From positions 1-6,375 of IMG/VR virus record IMGVR_UViG_2728369593_000005: a stretch of 6,375 nucleotides of DNA. One strand, written 5' to 3'. This document shows, one piece after another, positions 1 to 6,375 of this stretch; position 1 is the stretch's first letter, and the number at the start of each line of letters is the position of its first letter. Source of the stretch: a virus. Its lineage: Duplodnaviria > Heunggongvirae > Uroviricota > Caudoviricetes. The notes beneath the pieces are model-generated. The model saw nothing but the letters and a program-made list of their open reading frames with translations, had not been told where the DNA came from and made no database searches. The position numbers were made by a program, and so were the translations under genes.

Positions 1-2
1 TG

Positions 3-122
3 GTGATTTCTGATAACCAGATTTACCGTGAATGGGGAATTACTAGCGAAAACGAACACCGATTCATGGTCTTTGGAAAGGTCTTAATCAGTCAGTCGCA
101 AACCCTTAAGAGACATAATTAA
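3..122 (+). CDS. 3' end (39 codons plus stop) of an upstream prophage gene, product unknown; 5' part outside window
   Basis: Only frame 3 is open from the window edge (frames 1 and 2 hit stops within 12 nt). Translation ...VISDNQIYREWGITSENEHRFMVFGKVLISQSQTLKRHN*, stop TAA at 120-122, followed 20 nt later by a textbook intrinsic terminator. Confidence 0.45.
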   Translation: MISDNQIYREWGITSENEHRFMVFGKVLISQSQTLKRHN

Positions 123-140
123 CCTCAATATCCTTCCATC

Positions 141-162
141 GGCCACCGAAAGGTGGCTTTTT
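141..162 (+). terminator. Rho-independent terminator (GCCACC / GAAA loop / GGTGGC followed by T5)
   Basis: 6-bp GC stem 142-147/152-157 with a GAAA tetraloop, immediately followed by TTTTT at 158-162, directly downstream of the stop at 120-122. Confidence 0.75.
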
Positions 163-175
163 ATTACCTATCAAT

Positions 176-226
176 TTGCATATCCCGCAAATATCACTTG
201 CATATCTCGCAATTTAATTTTATCTT
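176..226. promoter_or_regulatory. Two operator-like imperfect palindromes TTGCATATC(C/T)CGCAA 22 bp apart, overlapping a candidate sigma70 promoter
   Basis: TTGCATATCCCGCAA at 176-190 and TTGCATATCTCGCAA at 198-212, each of the form TTGC-N7-GCAA, with a centre-to-centre spacing of 22 bp (about two helical turns). The second site coincides with a -35-like TTGCAT (198-203), a 17-bp spacer and a -10-like TATCTT (221-226). Confidence 0.4.
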
Positions 227-397
227 TTGTTCCAGACCAACTACAGGATTACAACAAAATCTGGTTGCAACACGGTGCATGTGTCGTAAGCAGTCAGTAA
301 ATGTCAAAAACGAACAGGCAGGACGCCCACGAAGTAGCCGCCGGTGGCGTATGAATGACCGGATGATTCGTTAAATACTATGTGTAAGAGAGCGCAA

Positions 398-600
398 ATG
401 AACCGTTATTTCACATGCTCGTTTTGTGGCGCAAACGAGCTGCAGGCAAAAAAATCATCGCCAAAGGCGGAAAAGATGAAGTTGCTATCTGCTCTGAGTG
501 CGTAGTCTTGTGTGTCGGGGCATTAATCAATATCAGCACAACTATTCGGTTCACACCAAATGAGAATGCGCCTTTAGATGCGCGGAAATCTGGAGGTTAA
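398..600 (+). CDS. Small ClpX-type C4 zinc-finger protein (about 67 aa if read through); reading frame interrupted by a -1 shift at an A7 tract (448-454), so either a pseudogene, a programmed frameshift or a sequence error
   Basis: ATG at 398 gives MNRYFTCSFCGANELQAKK and then runs out of frame to a stop at 503-505. The -1 frame (supplied ORF 415..600) continues ...KKIIAKGGKDEVAICSECVVLCVGAL.... Joined at the A run, the product has CSFCG...KIIAG...ICxECVxLC, which closely mirrors the ClpX N-terminal zinc-binding motif (CSFCGK...KLIAGP...YICDECVDLC) as I remember it. Neither half alone has all four Cys ligands. Confidence 0.6.
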
Positions 601-689
601 AGAACAAAATGAAAGTCCAGATTTTAAACAATAACTGTGAAGTCGTTTGGGCGTAAAACATGACCGCGCGTAGACCAAGGGAGGAAAAA

Positions 690-866
690 GTGGGAATAGT
701 TAGAAATCAAGCAGATATATTGAAAATCAGCTCTGAATTGCTTGGAGTTTTGAAAAGTGAGCTCACCGCACATGGCATCGAGCCCACTGACGAAAATTTA
801 AGTTGGGTTTTGTCGATTATTCAACAATCACTCAAGCCCAGCCTCAGCAAACTTTTTATCGAGTAG
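690..866 (+). CDS. Hypothetical small prophage protein (58 aa from GTG 690; alternative ATG at 660 gives 68 aa)
   Basis: Strong Shine-Dalgarno AAGGGAGG at 676-683, 6 nt before GTG 690. Product VGIVRNQADILKISSELLGVLKSELTAHGIEPTDENLSWVLSIIQQSLKPSLSKLFIE. Same orientation as the rest of the prophage operon. No homology recognised. Confidence 0.4.
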   Translation: MGIVRNQADILKISSELLGVLKSELTAHGIEPTDENLSWVLSIIQQSLKPSLSKLFIE

Positions 867-1019
867 TGCTTCGAACTTATCGTAAAGCTTGCTTATGTCG
901 TCTATCGGGTTTTCTGACGTACTGTAATTTTTATCTGATGTCATGGCAGCAGTCTGATATGCAGTGTGAGTCTTAACCGATAGTTGGAATAAATAAAGAA
1001 TTTTTTCTTCTTTGGTCAT
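828..1019 (-). CDS. Hypothetical small protein (63 aa), antisense to the surrounding operon and overlapping the 3' end of the 690..866 ORF by 39 nt
   Basis: Internal ATG (complement of 1017-1019) preceded by AAGGA with a 7-nt spacer; the supplied ORF 828..1061 has no Shine-Dalgarno at its first ATG. Product MTKEEKILYLFQLSVKTHTAYQTAAMTSDKNYSTSENPIDDISKLYDKFEALLDKKFAEAGLE. AT-rich segment. Confidence 0.35.
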   Translation of the reverse strand: MTKEEKILYLFQLSVKTHTAYQTAAMTSDKNYSTSENPIDDISKLYDKFEALLDKKFAEAGLE

Positions 1020-1099
1020 AACTATTTCCTTCTTGGCTATATGAAAACACCAAGATACCACCGAGCCTGAAGTGGTGAAAAGACAGGCACATAACAGCT

Positions 1100-1440
1100 A
1101 AGTATTTTCAACCAGAGAGAATCCTTAGCGTTGTGGTGAATGCGGCTCAGCGCACGCGGGTTAAGGTTGAGGCTGACAGTCGACCTTCTGTGGATACCCA
1201 CCCGCCTGGTGTGCAACCTTCGCCAGGCACCGGGAGGCACCCGGCACCACAACTTTATGCTGTGTGTAGTCTTGGCGGTACCAGCTTATACCCTTGCTTC
1301 CGGCTGGTACCGTCCTTTTTACAAAACAGAGAAGAGCATCACCGGACGACGGGCTCATAACCCAATCCATCCGGGCGGCAGTCACCGCAGGTGTTCTTCT
1401 CTGTTTTGTGGAGAAACTAACCGACCTTGCAGGGTCGATA
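1100..1440 (+). other. GC-rich, highly self-complementary, apparently non-coding element (candidate structured RNA or DNA site)
   Basis: Abrupt change from the AT-rich 600-1060 segment to a GC-rich one. ORFs are open in several frames on both strands but have Arg/Pro/Cys/His/Trp-rich, non-protein-like composition. Multiple stems are present, including GCCTGG 1203-1208 / CCAGGC 1223-1228, GGCACC three times at 1226-1248, and a perfect 10-bp stem at 1276-1312. Confidence 0.3.
1276..1320 (+). terminator. Strong hairpin (perfect 10-bp stem CGGTACCAGC/GCTGGTACCG, 17-nt loop) followed by T5; possible intrinsic terminator or RNA 3' end
   Basis: Arms at 1276-1285 and 1303-1312 are exact reverse complements; TCC then TTTTT at 1316-1320. 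Confidence 0.4.
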
Positions 1441-1457
1441 TGATGAGGAGCAGCAAA

Positions 1458-1820
1458 ATGGCTAGCGAACGCAGTACTGATGTGCAGGCATTTATCGGGG
1501 AGCTGGACGGCGGCGTATTTGAAACCAAAATCGGCGCAGTTCTCAGTGAAGTCGCTTCCGGTGTGATGAACACGAAAACCAAAGGTAAGGTCTCGCTCAA
1601 CCTGGAAATCGAACCGTTTGATGAGAACCGAGTGAAAATCAAACACAAACTCTCATATGTTCGCCCGACTAACCGCGGGAAAATTTCCGAAGAAGACACC
1701 ACCGAAACGCCGATGTATGTCAATCGCGGTGGTCGCCTGACTATTCTGCAGGAAGAACAGGGACAGTTACTGACTCTTGCCGGTGAACCTGACGGAAAAC
1801 TCCGCGCAGCAGGTCGTTAA
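1458..1820 (+). CDS. yfdP: Uncharacterised prophage protein YfdP (120 aa)
   Basis: GAGGAG Shine-Dalgarno at 1445-1450, 7 nt before ATG 1458. The 120-aa product (MASERSTDVQAFIGELDGG...) matches the size and my recollection of K-12 YfdP. The upstream in-frame extension to 1140 is rejected as coding. Confidence 0.8.
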   Translation: MASERSTDVQAFIGELDGGVFETKIGAVLSEVASGVMNTKTKGKVSLNLEIEPFDENRVKIKHKLSYVRPTNRGKISEEDTTETPMYVNRGGRLTILQEEQGQLLTLAGEPDGKLRAAGR

Positions 1821-1885
1821 TATCGTTTTTAATTAACTGATTATTTATCTCATCACTGAATATCTTTATATAGTGAGGACTTATT

Positions 1886-2710
1886 ATGTCTCAGAACTTA
1901 GACGCAACCGCAATTAATCAAATCCATGCCCTTATTTCTGCTCAGGGTGTTAATGAAATTATCAGTAAGATTGGTGCCGATGCTGTGGCATTGCCTGAGA
2001 ATTTCCGCATTCATGATCTGGAAAAATTTAATTTAAATCGCTTCCGTTTCCGTGGTGCGCTTTCCACTGCCAGCATCGATGACTTTACCCGTTATTCTAA
2101 AGATCTTGCAGATGAAGGCACCCGCTGCTTTATCGATGCTGATAATATGCGTGCCGTCAGTGTGCTTAACCTGGGTACTATTGATGAACCAGGTCACGCA
2201 GATAACACCGCCACACTCAAACTGAAAAAGACAGCACCGTTCTCTGCTCTGTTGTCTGTTAACGGCGAGCGTAACTCCCAGAAGTCACTAGCAGAATGGA
2301 TTGAAGACTGGGCCGACTACCTTGTGGGCTTTGATGCGAATGGTGACGCCATTCAGGCAACAAAAGCGGCTGCGGCAGTCCGTAAAATCACGATTGAAGC
2401 AAACCAGACCGCTGATTTTGAAGATAATGACTTCAGCGGCAAACGCTCCCTGATGGAGTCTGTCGAAGCGAAGACCAAAGACATTATGCCAGTGGCATTT
2501 GAATTTAAATGCGTTCCGTTTGAAGGCCTGAAAGAACGTCCGTTTAAATTACGCCTCAGCATTATCACTGGCGATCGTCCGGTACTGGTTCTGCGCATTA
2601 TTCAGCTGGAGGCGGTGCAGGAAGAAATGGCTAACGAATTTCGTGATCTGCTTGTTGAGAAATTCAAAGACAGCAAAGTAGAAACCTTTATTGGTACTTT
2701 CACCGCCTGA
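1886..2710 (+). CDS. yfdQ: Uncharacterised prophage protein YfdQ (274 aa; I recall this family as DUF2303)
   Basis: 274-aa ORF with GAGGA 6 nt before the ATG; protein-like composition; size and sequence match my recollection of K-12 YfdQ. Confidence 0.85.
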
Positions 2711-2722
2711 TTTCATTACTGC

Positions 2723-2744
2723 AAATGCCCCTGCGGGGGCATTT
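2723..2744 (+). terminator. Hairpin AAATGCCCC-TGCG-GGGGCATTT between yfdQ and yfdR (weak terminator or attenuator; T tract only 3 nt)
   Basis: Perfect 9-bp inverted repeat 2723-2731/2736-2744 with a 4-nt loop, 13 nt after the yfdQ stop. Confidence 0.3.
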
Positions 2745-2838
2745 ATGGAAACATAATTTACTCAATAATCGCCGGATGGTGAGAGATTCCTTTTACCAGA
2801 ATTCAACGCGGTGCAGCGCATATAAAGTGGAGAACAAA

Positions 2839-3375
2839 ATGTCATTTATTAAAACTTTTTCCGGGAAGCATTTTTATTATGACAAGATAAATAAAGACGA
2901 CATCGAGATTAACGATATCGCAGTTTCCCTTTCAAATATCTGTCGCTTTGCAGGACATCTTTCACACTTCTACAGCGTCGCCCAACATGCGGTGCTTTGC
3001 AGCCAGCTGGTGCCGCAGGAATTTGCTTTTGAAGCGTTAATGCATGATGCAACAGAAGCATATTGCCAGGACATTCCCGCACCACTGAAACGACTTCTTC
3101 CTGACTATAAACAAATGGAAGAAAAAATAGACGCCGTAATCCGTGAGAAATACGGGTTACCCCCAGTTATGAGCACGCCAGTGAAATATGCCGATCTCAT
3201 CATGCTGGCAACCGAACGCCGCGATCTCGGGCTTGATGATGGCTCTTTCTGGCCTGTACTGGAAGGCATCCCGGCAACAGAGATGTTCAAAGTGATTCCA
3301 CTGGCACCAGGCCATGCCTACGGGATGTTTATGGAACGCTTTAACGAGTTATCGGAGTTACGCAAATGCGCATGA
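2839..3375 (+). CDS. yfdR: HD-domain 5'-deoxynucleotidase YfdR (178 aa)
   Basis: Product MSFIKTFSGKHFYYDKINKDD...HDATEAYCQDIP... carries HD-type metal-ligand motifs and matches my memory of K-12 YfdR (178 aa). GGAG sits 9 nt before ATG 2839. The supplied ORF start at 2725 lies inside the upstream hairpin and lacks a Shine-Dalgarno. Confidence 0.85.
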   Translation: MSFIKTFSGKHFYYDKINKDDIEINDIAVSLSNICRFAGHLSHFYSVAQHAVLCSQLVPQEFAFEALMHDATEAYCQDIPAPLKRLLPDYKQMEEKIDAVIREKYGLPPVMSTPVKYADLIMLATERRDLGLDDGSFWPVLEGIPATEMFKVIPLAPGHAYGMFMERFNELSELRKCA

Positions 3376-3728
3376 ATGTTTTCGAAATGGAAGGGTTTCT
3401 TCGCGGGAAATGTGTACCGCGAGATCTGAAAGTAAACGAAACAAATGCTGAATACCTAGTACGTAAATTCGATGCGCTTGAAGCTAAATGTACAGCACAG
3501 GAAAACAAAATAATACCAGTGTCAACTGAACTGCCACCAGCAAATGAAAGTGTTCTGTTATTCGATGCTAACGGAGAAGGCTGGCTAATTGGCTGGCGTT
3601 CTCTCTGGTACACCTGGGGACAAAAAGAAACCGGAGAATGGCAGTGGACATTTCAGGTCGGGGACCTTGAAAACGTCAATATCACTCACTGGGCAGTAAT
3701 GCCAAAAGCACCGGAGAATAAGAAATGA
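3366..3728 (+). CDS. yfdS: DUF551-family prophage protein YfdS (120 aa)
   Basis: C-terminal ...THWAVMPKAPE is the signature end of the DUF551 family as I recall it. The start overlaps the yfdR stop within ATGCGCATGA. Size matches K-12 YfdS. Confidence 0.8.
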   Translation: MRMNVFEMEGFLRGKCVPRDLKVNETNAEYLVRKFDALEAKCTAQENKIIPVSTELPPANESVLLFDANGEGWLIGWRSLWYTWGQKETGEWQWTFQVGDLENVNITHWAVMPKAPENKK

Positions 3729-4039
3729 GCATAATGACCACTTTTACCGACAAAGAACTGATTAAAGAAATTAAAGAGCGTATCAGCAGCCTTGACGTGC
3801 GAGACGATATTGAGCGCCGTGCTTATGAAATCGCACTCCTATCTCTGGAAGTAGAACCAGATGAACGCGAAGCTTATGAATTATTCATGGAAAAGCGTTT
3901 CGGTGACTTAGTAGATCGTCGGAGAGCAAAAAACGGCGATAACGAATACATGGCATGGGATATGACTCTCGGTTGGATCGTCTGGCAGCAACGAGCTGGT
4001 ATCCATTTTTCAACAATGTCACAACAAGAGGTGAAATAA
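3725..4039 (+). CDS. yfdT: Uncharacterised prophage protein YfdT (104 aa; alternative start at 3734 gives 101 aa)
   Basis: ATG overlaps the yfdS stop (ATGA at 3725-3728), suggesting translational coupling. Acidic, protein-like composition; size consistent with K-12 YfdT (101 aa). Confidence 0.75.
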   Translation: MSIMTTFTDKELIKEIKERISSLDVRDDIERRAYEIALLSLEVEPDEREAYELFMEKRFGDLVDRRRAKNGDNEYMAWDMTLGWIVWQQRAGIHFSTMSQQEVK

Positions 4040-4135
4040 TAGAGCCATACAGCCTCACACTCGATGAGGCCTGTCAGTTTCTTAAAATATCCTGATCTAC
4101 CATCGCCGTCATAGAGCGTATTTTTATTACCTGAT

Positions 4136-4151
4136 TTGCAGGTTCGATTCC
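4136..4151. other. tRNA T-arm-like fragment (TTGCAGGTTCGATTCC) upstream of torI; not a complete tRNA
   Basis: Contains the canonical T-loop motif GGTTCGATTCC preceded by GCAGG, but the complementary T-stem 3' strand CCTGC does not follow (sequence continues CTATTCGG). The matching 3' half is found about 290 bp downstream at 4445-4459. Confidence 0.5.
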
Positions 4152-4170
4152 CTATTCGGAGATAGCACTC

Positions 4171-4371
4171 ATGCAACACGAACTACAGCCTGATTCACTG
4201 GTTGATTTGAAATTCATCATGGCTGATACTGGCTTCGGTAAGACCTTCATCTATGACCGGATTAAGTCCGGCGACCTGCCTAAAGCCAAAGTTATCCACG
4301 GACGAGCAAGATGGTTATATCGTGACCATTGTGAATTCAAAAATAAGCTCTTAAGCCGCGCCAATGGGTAA
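4171..4371 (+). CDS. torI: TorI: prophage excisionase (recombination directionality factor) and inhibitor of the TorR response regulator
   Basis: The 66-aa product MQHELQPDSLVDLKFIMADTGFGKTFIYDRIKSGDLPKAKVIHGRARWLYRDHCEFKNKLLSRANG matches my recollection of TorI and has the AlpA/Xis-type helix-turn-helix pattern. GGAG 9 nt before the ATG. Sits immediately inside attR, as expected for an excisionase. Confidence 0.88.
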   Translation: MQHELQPDSLVDLKFIMADTGFGKTFIYDRIKSGDLPKAKVIHGRARWLYRDHCEFKNKLLSRANG

Positions 4372-4420
4372 AATAGCGGGTAAAATATTTTTCACATCTA
4401 AAAAACACCATTCCAATCAA

Positions 4421-4459
4421 TCCCCTGCAACCTCAAGTAGATGTCTGCAGGGGACACCA
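4421..4459. other. Prophage attR: tRNA 3'-end core (CTGCAGGGGACACCA, 4445-4459) with a flanking 9-bp inverted repeat
   Basis: 4445-4459 is the T-stem 3' strand, acceptor 3' strand, discriminator and CCA of a tRNA, and is consistent with my recollection of the argW 3' end. TCCCCTGCA at 4421-4429 is the exact reverse complement of TGCAGGGGA at 4446-4454, as expected for integrase core-type sites around a crossover region. Confidence 0.6.
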
Positions 4460-4845
4460 GATACCCTTCAAACGATATCTACCTTCACCCCGTAAAAGAT
4501 AAGTTAGGCAGCACATTTGCCCTATCTACTCATTTTTCCTGCAACAGGTTGAAATCTCAACACGGTCAGAAAACGCTGATGACTAAACAGCCCTGGGCCG
4601 GGCGATGTAACCATCACACACAATCCTGATCGCGAAATATGGCGTGACTTGATACTTCACTCCACAATGCTTTCCTTGATGAATTCGCAGGCCCGTGATA
4701 CACGGGACAGGTCGCTGAATTACGACAATGCCCTGGAAATCAGCGAGCCGTGTATCCGGAGTACATTTGAGCGACTGTACCAGAACATGAATGAGGCGTT
4801 TGGATTAGGCGATTATTAGCAGGGCTAAGCATTTTGGTATTATTA

Positions 4846-4889
4846 TTTTCCGGTTGAGGGATATAGAGCTATCGACAACAACCGGAAAA
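4846..4889. terminator. Perfect 11-bp inverted repeat (TTTTCCGGTTG / CAACCGGAAAA, 22-nt loop) 10 nt downstream of the cscB stop; candidate cscB terminator
   Basis: Arms at 4846-4856 and 4879-4889 are exact reverse complements. The T/A runs are part of the stem rather than a free 3' U tract, so terminator function is uncertain. Confidence 0.35.
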
Positions 4890-4898
4890 AGTTTACGT

Positions 4899-6146
4899 TT
4901 ATATTGCTGAAGGTACTGGCGTTTCCATCACTATTTGCTCACGTTTTTTACTCAGGAAGAAAATGCCAAATAGCAACATCAGGCAGACAATACCCGAAAT
5001 TGCGAAAAAAACCGTCTGGTAGCCTGCGTGGTCAAAGAGTATCCCAGTCGGCGTTGAAAGCAGCACAATCCCCAACGAACTGGCAATTTGAAAACCAATC
5101 AGAAAGATCGTCGACGACAGGCGCTTATCAAAATTTGCCACGCTGTATTTGAAGACGGATATGACACAAAGTGGAACCTCAATGGCATGTAACAGCTTCA
5201 CTAATGAAATAATCCAGGGGTTAACGAATAGCGCGCAGGAAAGGATACGCAACGCCATAATCACAACACCGATAAGTAATGCATTTTTTGGCCCTACCCG
5301 ATTCACAAAGAAAGGAATAATCGCCATGCACAGCGCTTCGAGTACCACCTGGAATGAGTTGAGATAACCATACAGGCGCGTTCCTACATCGTGTGATTCG
5401 AATAAACCTGCATAAAAGACAGGAAAGAGTTGTTGATCAAAAATGTTATAGAAAGACCACGTCCCCACAATAAATATGACGAAAACCCAGAAGTTTCGAT
5501 CCTTGAAAACTGCGATAAAATCCTCTTTTTTTACCCCTCCCGCATCCGCCGCTATGCACTGGTGATCCTTATCTTTAAAACGCATGTTGATCATCATAAA
5601 TACAGCGCCAAATAGCGAGACCAACCAGAAGTTGATATGGGGACTGATACTAAAAAATATACCGGCAAAGAACGCGCCAATAGCATAGCCAAAAGATCCC
5701 CAGGCGCGCGCTGTTCCATATTCGAAATGAAAATTTCGCGCCATTTTTTCGGTGAAGCTGTCAAGCAAACCGCATCCCGCCAGATACCCCAGGCCAAAAA
5801 AGAGCGCCCCCAGAATTAGACCTGCAGAAAAATTGCTTTGCAGTAACGGTTCATAAACGTAAATCATAAACGGTCCGGTCAAGACCAGAATGAAACTCAT
5901 ACACCAGATGAGCGGTTTCTTCAGACCGAGTTTATCCTGAACGATGCCGTAGAACATCATAAATAGAATGCTGGTAAACTGGTTGACCGAATAAAGTGTA
6001 CCTAATTCCGTCCCTGTTAATCCTAGATGTCCTTTCAGCCAAATAGCGTATAATGACCACCACAGCGACCAGGAAATAAAAAAGAGAAATGAGTAACTGG
6101 ATGCAAAACGATAGTACGCATTTCTGAATGGAATATTCAGTGCCAT
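4899..6146 (-). CDS. cscB: Sucrose:H+ symporter CscB (oligosaccharide:H+ symporter family within the MFS, LacY-like; 415 aa)
   Basis: 415-aa hydrophobic multi-pass ORF. The sequence (MALNIPFRNAYYRFASSYSFLFF...) matches my recollection of E. coli CscB and is clearly LacY-like. It lies immediately downstream of a fructokinase gene on the same strand, as in the csc locus. Confidence 0.9.
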   Translation of the reverse strand: MALNIPFRNAYYRFASSYSFLFFISWSLWWSLYAIWLKGHLGLTGTELGTLYSVNQFTSILFMMFYGIVQDKLGLKKPLIWCMSFILVLTGPFMIYVYEPLLQSNFSAGLILGALFFGLGYLAGCGLLDSFTEKMARNFHFEYGTARAWGSFGYAIGAFFAGIFFSISPHINFWLVSLFGAVFMMINMRFKDKDHQCIAADAGGVKKEDFIAVFKDRNFWVFVIFIVGTWSFYNIFDQQLFPVFYAGLFESHDVGTRLYGYLNSFQVVLEALCMAIIPFFVNRVGPKNALLIGVVIMALRILSCALFVNPWIISLVKLLHAIEVPLCVISVFKYSVANFDKRLSSTIFLIGFQIASSLGIVLLSTPTGILFDHAGYQTVFFAISGIVCLMLLFGIFFLSKKREQIVMETPVPSAI

Positions 6147-6207
6147 AATTACCTGCCTGTCGTTAAAAAATTCATGTCCTATTTAGAGATAAGAGCGGCC
6201 TCGCCGT

Positions 6208-6375
6208 TTACTTCTCACTTTCCAGTTCTTGTCGACATGGCAGCGCTGTCATTGCCCCTTTCGCTGTTACTGCAAGCGCTCCGCAACGTTGAGCGAGATC
6301 GATAATTCGTCGCATTTCTCTCTCATCTGTAGATAACCCCGTAGAGGACAGACCTGTGAGTAACCCCGTAATAAC
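6208..6375 (-). CDS. cscK: Fructokinase CscK, 3' end only (55 codons plus stop); remainder beyond window edge
   Basis: Reverse-complement frame is open from the window edge to TAA (complement of 6208-6210). It translates to ...DLAQRCGALAVTAKGAMTALPCRQELESEK*, a typical PfkB-family sugar-kinase C-terminus. Position directly upstream of cscB fits cscK. Confidence 0.75.
   Translation of the reverse strand, partial: VITGLLTGLSSTGLSTDEREMRRIIDLAQRCGALAVTAKGAMTALPCRQELESEK

Follow-up and report, generated by a model that had tools for sequence, protein, structure and literature searches.

Why should a piece of transfer RNA (tRNA) sequence stand in front of an excisionase gene, well inside phage DNA, when the attachment site (att) at which such sequence is expected lies on the other side of that gene? 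The question is raised by IMG/VR virus record IMGVR_UViG_2728369593_000005 (Caudoviricetes), of which positions 1 to 6,375 were analysed and are called the window here. In the window, torI, which encodes an excisionase or recombination directionality factor (RDF), sits between an upstream piece at 4136-4151 and a downstream piece at 4445-4459, and an earlier reading of the letters alone (the original prediction) took the two for separated halves of a tRNA 3' end. We suggest, with a probability that we would put at roughly 60%, that the upstream piece acts in cis, as a functional element that the phage carries in the excisionase leader, and that it is neither a relic of integration nor one half of a split att.

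That two pieces of a tRNA 3' end bracket torI is borne out by comparison with the intact argW gene of an empty integration site (L004 1441-1515), to which they are identical at 16 of 16 and 15 of 15 positions. The downstream piece reads CTGCAGGGGACACCA, the last 15 nt of argW, and in the intact gene, which ends in CTAATTGCAGGTTCGATTCCTGCAGGGGACACCA, the two pieces abut and share C62. When window positions 3700-4900 were compared by BLAST with 5,426 complete E. coli genomes and with phages, homology to empty-site argW began at query position 746 (window 4445), and homology to the free phages HK620 and Sf6 stopped at query position 760 (window 4459), where the attP core is annotated in both records; the core is the only stretch shared by the phage homology on its left and the empty-site homology on its right. 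The downstream piece is therefore, as predicted, the attR core already known for the KplE1/HK620/Sf6 module, and it was left when IntS integrated the phage into argW. A 16-17-bp att site is described for Kapi1, Sf6, HK620, and KplE1, with attP between xis and int (PMC8787464), and we take strand exchange by IntS at this core from published work (PMC2951348, PMC3509656).

The upstream piece is the puzzle, and the dullest solution, a chance resemblance to a generic T-loop, is already refuted. The word GGTTCGAnTCC is indeed generic to tRNAs, and a one-mismatch copy, GGTTCGATTTC, occurs at 1605-1615 on the minus strand of the window. The upstream piece nevertheless matches the TTCGATT loop variant of the very tRNA that is the integration target, under a uniform model the window should hold 3e-6 exact 16-mers of this kind (shuffled sequences give 0.10 matches when as many as three mismatches are allowed), and the element recurs at the same place in 15 lineages. 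The copy at 1605-1615 lies inside long open reading frames (ORFs) that overlap 1140-1820 on both strands and itself fits chance, with 0.33 such matches per shuffled window.

The piece belongs to the phage. Positions 4121-4459, motif and TTTGCAGGTTCGATTCCCTATTCGGAGATAGCACTC-ATG included, are 97% identical to the free phages HK620 and Sf6, and the torI product is 100% identical to HkaC/gp18, while the window left of 4095 is 96% identical to the thrW-type phages SfV, SfII, and SfIV; the tRNA-like piece thus lies just inside the left boundary of a mobile module. Judged by these homologies, it is part of the phage's own module and was not produced by integration into this chromosome. Partial tRNA copies are familiar from prophage ends, as the attL and attR repeats at tRNA genes, and the downstream piece is exactly such a copy. 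The upstream piece, in contrast, lies inside phage DNA, represents tRNA sequence from the left side of the crossover, and occurs in phages that are not integrated.

To learn how widely the piece is shared, relatives were gathered by protein homology alone, by tblastn of phage records together with a search of species-representative genomes that used six aligned excisionases. In 15 of the 31 protein-defined lineages the leader carries GTTC[G/T]ATT[C/T]C within 60 nt 5' of the start codon (expectation for an 8-mer, 6e-4 per leader), and the motif core GTTCGATTCCC stands about 29 nt before the excisionase start codon and 3-6 nt 5' of the Shine-Dalgarno (SD) sequence. The hosts include Escherichia, Shigella, Salmonella, Citrobacter, Enterobacter, Phytobacter, Serratia, Pantoea, Erwinia, and Edwardsiella; the excisionases concerned are as little as 36-45% identical to TorI (36% in Erwinia phage phiEt88), and the free phages with the motif are HK620, Sf6, Salmonella g341c, and Erwinia phiEt88 and Midgardsormr38. 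Pattern scans added two viral contigs (L138, L168) and five metagenome loci (L278, L326, L331, L351, L361). On this evidence the window's 16-mer is the form that a conserved T-arm-like motif, (C)AGGTTCGATTCCC, takes in the E. coli lineage. Its full 16/16 run is confined to the E. coli/HK620 lineage, and what appears there as 16 of 16 is, on alignment, a family-conserved 13-mer plus three lineage-specific bases. Similarity to the tRNA beyond a generic T-loop, on which the original prediction had made its interpretation depend, is accordingly present in E. coli (16 nt) and reaches only 10-13 nt family-wide.

Within the leader, conservation is sharply focused. Mean pairwise identity in motif-anchored alignments is 0.94 for the core, 0.35 for the 20 nt upstream, 0.63 for the xis coding DNA, and 0.75 for the SD block, and conservation is also seen outside the anchoring pattern, at C-3, A-2, G-1, and C+8 to C+10. 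Leader variants include ACAGG, CCAGG, and CTAGG, and CCT against CCC. The sequence before the motif falls into at least nine unrelated contexts; in 12 of 16 lineages a spacer of exactly 5 nt, variable in sequence, separates the motif from GGAG, after which come the consensus CGGAGATRAAACC and the ATG. Among E. coli leaders only singleton variants are found from -41 to -1, whereas torI and the P arm show common polymorphisms. Compared with its immediate flanks, the motif is shown by these alignments to evolve under strong purifying selection. It has been cleanly lost in some lineages (in L098 and L114 about 25 bp including the motif are missing, and terminator and SD are kept) and tandemly duplicated in two, independently, with a period of 16 in Midgardsormr38 (L005, about 1990-2025) and of 13 in L361 (about 700-770), a metagenome contig that encodes an 82% TorI homologue.

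The complete genomes of HK620 and phiEt88 each hold one copy of the motif, and among non-tRNA matches to motif plus SD, the only ones that encode an excisionase-family protein are xis leaders; by that comparison it is shown to be specific to the TorI-related excisionase family. The remaining matches in viral and metagenome contigs are tRNAs, tRNA-like elements, and scattered unrelated sequences, and a general phage expression signal or multi-copy operator was rejected for these reasons.

Could the motif nonetheless be a nonfunctional remnant of tRNA or att sequence, left by an ancient attL-type junction, by tandem integration, or by an att split when xis was acquired, and since carried along at the left edge of the module? 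Its position at a mosaic boundary would suit such a history, as would fragments of the T-stem 3' strand in several lineages (CCTG in L096 and L099, CC[C]TGT in L102 and L103). The rest of the leader is also marginally closer to the tRNA 3' end than shuffled sequences are (p 0.01-0.18, the lineages not being independent), but this similarity is not specific to argW, since a control with a different tRNA 3' end scores equally well or better. A relic should not, moreover, remain invariant while the adjoining bases are scrambled on both sides across lineages whose xis DNA is about 63% identical. The similarity to argW is confined to one arm, an exact run of 10-16 nt flanked by segments that match at 2-9 of 20 positions; no lineage shows it reaching further 5' of the motif, and ARAGORN, run on the window and about 40 related loci, detected neither a tRNA nor a pseudo-tRNA 5' of xis. 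The proposal of an earlier or tandem integration at the same tRNA thus finds no support, the piece traveling with the phage module and no lineage keeping more of the tRNA, and we regard an inert remnant as very unlikely. A tRNA origin of the motif is plausible as history but is not the whole explanation.

The att region itself argues against the related proposal that torI was inserted into a longer tRNA-derived att. Directly left of TGCAGGGG, all 28 distinct att sites carry TT(C/A)GATGT(C/A), where the tRNA in the same register reads TTCGATTCC; G-6, G-3, and T-2 are invariant in all 28, and at -3/-2, T and C stand in the tRNA and in the leader motif alike. The att site therefore possesses its own, diverged T-loop, and the upstream piece is an additional and more tRNA-like copy. 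Modules that have no upstream motif carry the identical core, and nearly all modules target one argW-type core. The insertion proposal finds no support in these facts. It is true that the two pieces abut in argW and, joined, would rebuild its 3' end, but the appearance of two matching halves is an effect of the limits chosen for them, because the tRNA likeness continues to the left of 4445 as this in-register T-loop at 4437-4445.

Table 1. Features of the torI region of the window and its flanks
Feature	Position	Strand	Remarks
ypdJ-like remnant, 46-aa ORF	3955..4095	+	N-terminal 46 codons of SfV-type excisionase (SfV Xis), cut after FLKIS; left mosaic joint of the torI module
Upstream tRNA-identical 16-mer TTGCAGGTTCGATTCC	4136..4151	+	argW variable-loop end, T-stem 5' strand, T-loop, and CC
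Family-conserved leader motif CAGGTTCGATTCCC	4139..4152	+	Invariant core GTTCGATTCCC at 4142-4152; final C, T in the tRNA
Shine-Dalgarno block CGGAGATAGCACTC	4157..4170	+	GGAG at 4158-4161; lies 5 nt beyond the motif, runs up to the torI ATG
torI, excisionase (RDF) of the KplE1/HK620/Sf6 recombination module	4171..4371	+	66 aa; ORF, RefSeq annotation TorI
Two GGGTAAAA words, putative IntS arm-type (P) sites	4366-4373, 4378-4385	+	Overlap the torI stop codon
9-bp inverted repeat TCCCCTGCA (4421-4429) / TGCAGGGGA (4446-4454)	4421..4454	.	Exact; 16-bp spacer; spans P side and core
Phage-side, diverged in-register T-loop counterpart GTAGATGTC	4437..4445	+	Family consensus TT[C/A]GATGT[C/A]
attR core	4445..4459	+	15-bp identity of phage attP and argW 3' end; strand exchange presumably must occur here
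Bacterial flank 3' of argW	4460..4898	+	Followed by cscB, 4899-6146, minus strand

If the motif is neither accident nor remnant, the proteins that act in this module are the first candidates to read it. The suggestion of a phage-borne, att-related arm site was right as to the first part, since the piece lies upstream of hkaC in HK620 and of gene 18 in Sf6; the second part fails. A 135-bp attR fragment suffices for excision in vitro (PMC3509656); its left primer maps to 4348, so that the motif lies 197 bp outside, and TAAA, the word that arm-type sites share (PMC2951348; GGGTAAAA / TTTTACCC for IntS), is absent from 4136-4152. An arm site was rejected on both counts.

IntS might still recognize the motif in another capacity, as a core-type half-site equivalent to the left, bacterial half of attB. 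Integrase bridging to it from the GGGTAAAA arm sites at the torI stop codon could loop out and repress torI and, given repression of intS by TorI, the two genes would repress each other. This idea would account most economically for the tRNA identity: the motif equals argW positions 50-62 and ends, in the tRNA, exactly where the att identity block starts. The motif, a 7-bp gap, and GAGAT also mimic the spacing of half-site, overlap, and half-site, and among comparable specificities only core recognition is common to all motif-bearing modules, RDF and arm-type sites varying between groups while the core is constant. The bases themselves fit badly, however. Phage and right-hand half-sites conform to GRTGTC, with G-3 and T-2 in 28 of 28, and the leader has TC at those positions, which would make it a poor site for the integrase; its invariant C at +3 varies in C sites; tandem copies 13 and 16 bp apart are not helically phased; and excision in vitro proceeds with an attR that excludes the motif. 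A good integrase core site was rejected, GATTCC in the leader resembling instead a weak bacterial B half-site, and the half-site explanation as a whole strikes us as doubtful.

The second candidate reader is TorI, which would bind GTTCG in the motif and regulate its own gene negatively, as it does at PintS. TorI sites are 8-bp words with GTTCG, GATCG, or GTCCG cores, and TorI represses transcription at sites I4 and I5 (PMC2951348); in the HK620 sequence the published coordinates fit CAGTTCGC, CAGTCCGT, CAGTTCGT, TGGTTCGC, and CAGATCGT. The leader shares GTTCG with these attL sites (at 4142-4146 in the window), preceded by GG as in I4, and in some lineages a second GTTCG, GTCCG, or ATTCG follows 12 bp downstream, over the SD sequence (L103, L102, and the window). 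Set against 26 TorI-type P'-arm words taken from five phages, the leader nevertheless does not satisfy YRGWYCGY. Position 8 is a pyrimidine in 26 of 26 sites and A in 16 of 16 leaders, and position 1 is a pyrimidine in 24 of 26 sites and A in 10 of 16 leaders. True sites also stand at rigid offsets from the core in arrays with 10 or 20-bp spacing, and leader copies are single or 12, 13, or 16 bp apart. A canonical TorI site was rejected because of both flanking positions and the missing phased array. The motif persists, furthermore, where the RDF sites are of another type: phiEt88 keeps it despite different P'-arm repeats (GATGTAAC, GCGTTAC) and a different recognition helix, and one leader type is joined to three RDF types (L095/L097, L117, L138). 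We consider autoregulation through this motif improbable.

A third possibility places the motif in a promoter. This might be activated by cII (the "phage integration" promoter, pI), or it might depend on sigma-70 and have TTGCAG, which the original prediction took for a possible torI promoter, as -35 box. The sequencing authors of HK620 annotate a promoter on the same nucleotides (L002 1506-1544, window 4126-4164) with a cII site at 1507-1519 (window 4127-4139), and Sf6 carries the annotation "pI; possible integrase expression promoter"; their "boundary sequence" bsq2 comprises the leader and gene 18. These promoter annotations are themselves predictions. The proposed cII site is TTGC-N5-TTGC, although HK620's own pRE site has N6; TTAC replaces one repeat in the window, and other lineages have TTGC..TTCC or nothing, so that a TTGC-N6-TTGC site is not conserved. 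The annotated -10 box is likewise unconserved, and what is conserved is the T-arm-like 11-14-mer and the SD sequence; the motif would thus occupy the spacer of the promoter, which is normally unconstrained. A search for sigma-70-like -35/-10 pairs with 16-18 bp spacing gave no match on the + strand in 3700-4700, and the TTG of TTGCAG is unconserved outside the E. coli lineage, which tells against it as a -35 box. A promoter here would, besides, transcribe xis along with int, the wrong logic for integration. Little credence can be given to either form of promoter.

We return, then, to a cis element of the excisionase leader. The motif probably helps control when the excisionase is made, as its conservation and family specificity suggest. 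The authors of one study hold that excision in these phages must be controlled via the excisionase gene and propose the RDF gene as the target of that control (PMC2951348). How the motif would act is a more tentative matter. An action on the xis transcript produced by read-through, as a single-stranded element of the translation-initiation region, is the mechanism we favor, at somewhat less than even odds; there the motif might tune ribosome loading or bind a factor, and its tRNA likeness might reflect descent from a tRNA or att sequence that was later co-opted. We favor the RNA level because the distance to the SD sequence is nearly fixed, the motif is independent of RDF type, the tandem copies are not helically spaced, a rho-independent terminator stands just 5' of the leader in many lineages, and no promoter can be recognized.

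Rho-dependent termination reportedly silences read-through into torI, to go by the abstract of one study. Most E. coli relatives keep a rho-independent terminator at 4100-4127, directly 5' of the leader (GCCGCCTGATGGCGG-T6 or CCGCATCAATGCGG-T7). In the window it has decayed to CCGTCATAGAGCGTATTTTT, where a terminator scan finds none, and the decay could raise read-through into torI.

Several observations weigh against a functional leader element, or against its acting on the transcript. The motif is absent from about half of the lineages, the clean deletions in L098 and L114 among them, and whatever it does must therefore be dispensable. An RNA-level role alone leaves the match to the T-loop variant of the integration-target tRNA unexplained, and the fixed SD spacing could merely reflect shared ancestry of a short unit. 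Nor is there a fold to point to: RNAalifold on the leaders gives an empty consensus with no conserved pairs, single-sequence folds are no more stable than those of shuffled sequences (z-scores -0.5 to +0.5), and a possible anti-SD pairing of UUCC with GGAG is just 4 bp long. The partner and mechanism that we propose are inferred from sequence comparison, and three papers on this system (Panis 2007 JBC, Panis 2010 Virology, Menouni 2013 PNAS) may already assign the motif a role.

Other identities of the leader were also considered and set aside. A conserved RNA hairpin, whether a T-arm or an anti-SD structure, was rejected for want of a consensus fold and because T-stem complementarity occurs in about 5 of 12 independent lineages by hand count, near chance; Rfam covariance models gave only noise matches on the leader (E > 1). 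A small upstream ORF running through the motif was rejected on hand reading, neither frame nor start codons being conserved between lineages.

The tRNA identity itself invites a bolder version, in which the leader carries a deliberate imitation of the target tRNA's T-arm. Its reader would be either the integrase, for which it would serve as an attB-type half-site, or a host factor that binds T-loops and would recognize it in the mRNA. We think this unlikely, and mention it for what it would mean: such a mimic would couple excisionase production to the recombination machinery and, were the integrase the reader, IntS would repress torI and TorI would repress intS, a two-gene toggle that would set the direction of recombination.

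Control by a leader element would not be out of place among temperate phages. Retroregulation of int/xis by lambda sib and the proposed binding of P4 Vis to int mRNA (as cited in PMC2951348) are precedents for att-flanking cis elements that set the Int/Xis ratio at the RNA level, although the leader has no sequence or structural similarity to them and lacks an RNase III-type hairpin. In KplE1/HK620-type prophages int and xis lie at opposite prophage ends and are transcribed separately, and control of the excisionase gene is poorly defined in the accessible literature. The leader element is short, strongly conserved, and specific to the family, and with its place in the ribosome-binding region of the excisionase gene it is a concrete candidate control point that is easy to mutate; it is found in a model E. 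coli K-12 prophage and in serotype-converting phages of Shigella, Salmonella, and E. coli. For annotation the consequence is that tRNA-like sequence 5' of torI is no evidence of tandem or earlier integration when the borders of argW prophages are drawn.

The attR core is textbook for this system, and annotations of 2001 and 2004 place a predicted promoter and a "boundary sequence" over the motif. The T-arm-like motif goes unmentioned in the accessible literature and database records, among which the two Panis papers and Menouni 2013 are not counted. In the window, torI, the P arm, and the attR core are the same as in the published module at 97% identity, and the core, arm-type words, and RDF gene are arranged as published (PMC2951348, PMC3509656, PMC8787464). 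Accessible maps of binding sites cover attL and the 135-bp attR that starts inside torI, and the motif lies outside them.

By its gene content the window is the right end of a KplE1/CPS-53-like E. coli prophage: yfdP to yfdT, the ypdJ-like remnant, torI, and then the attR junction; ARAGORN found no tRNA in it. The recombination module as a whole runs leader, xis, P arm, core, P' arm, int. The same ypdJ-like remnant precedes the T-arm-like leader in Salmonella phage g341c, where gene 19 of the record fuses the remnant in frame to the real xis, and also in Enterobacter L115, in L326 and L351 from metagenomes, and in many E. coli loci of IMG/VR. Because the remnant recurs before the leader in this phage and these loci, an SfV-type xis-int module seems to have given way to the TorI-type module, either on several occasions or once, followed by wide spread.

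Around the core, the inverted repeat of the original prediction is exact. It is kept across the family as TCCCCTGC(A)/(T)GCAGGGGA, and where the core differs (L101, L102) both arms change, to CCCCTACA/TGTAGGGG in Rouxiella and TCCCTGCA/TGCAGGGA in Edwardsiella. Its 16-bp spacing exceeds that of a standard core-site pair; with the in-register T-loop in the 16-nt spacer and CACCA after the repeat, the att region resembles an acceptor/T-arm minihelix. The GGGTAAAA word is also repeated next to int in attP, and HK620's authors mark the stretch 4366..4385 as an attP repeat; the two words of the window are putatively P sites on this basis. RDF-type sites lie at +21, +41, +84, +94, and +104 from TGCAGGGG in HK620 (L002), Midgardsormr38 (L005), Chronis, and Eho49 (L006, L007). 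In attL, the tRNA's own T-loop GTTCG would by extrapolation sit 31 bp, about three helical turns, left of site I1, and because of this phasing it could be an extra TorI site in attL that attP lacks.

The bacterial flank of attR is a sucrose (csc) locus, cscB followed by cscK and cscA, where K-12 has dsdC; over at least 80% of the 3700-4900 query, from this prophage end through the flank to the start of cscB, a match exists in only 11 of the 5,426 complete E. coli genomes. A 43-aa ORF homologous to hkaB and Sf6 gene 17 (4364-4495) starts in the torI stop region and crosses the attR junction, so that its C terminus would differ between phage and prophage.

T-arm-like sequences in other settings also came to light. 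Two viral contigs carry acceptor-stem plus T-arm repeats resembling minihelices (TCCGGAG...GGCGGGTTCGATTCCCGCCTCCGGAGCA), in three copies in L134 (at about 108 and 583 on the reverse strand, and a third) and in L140 as well; each element lies just 5' of an ORF, and ARAGORN calls no tRNA there. Proteus hauseri has a tRNA-Arg(CCU) gene (L107 3995-4067; T-arm ACAGG/CCTGT) on the strand opposite to a TorI homologue and 1.3 kb downstream of it, an arrangement unlike the argW-attL / xis-attR layout; GCGAACTGAG repeats, the reverse complement of a GTTCG-type RDF array, adjoin this tRNA.

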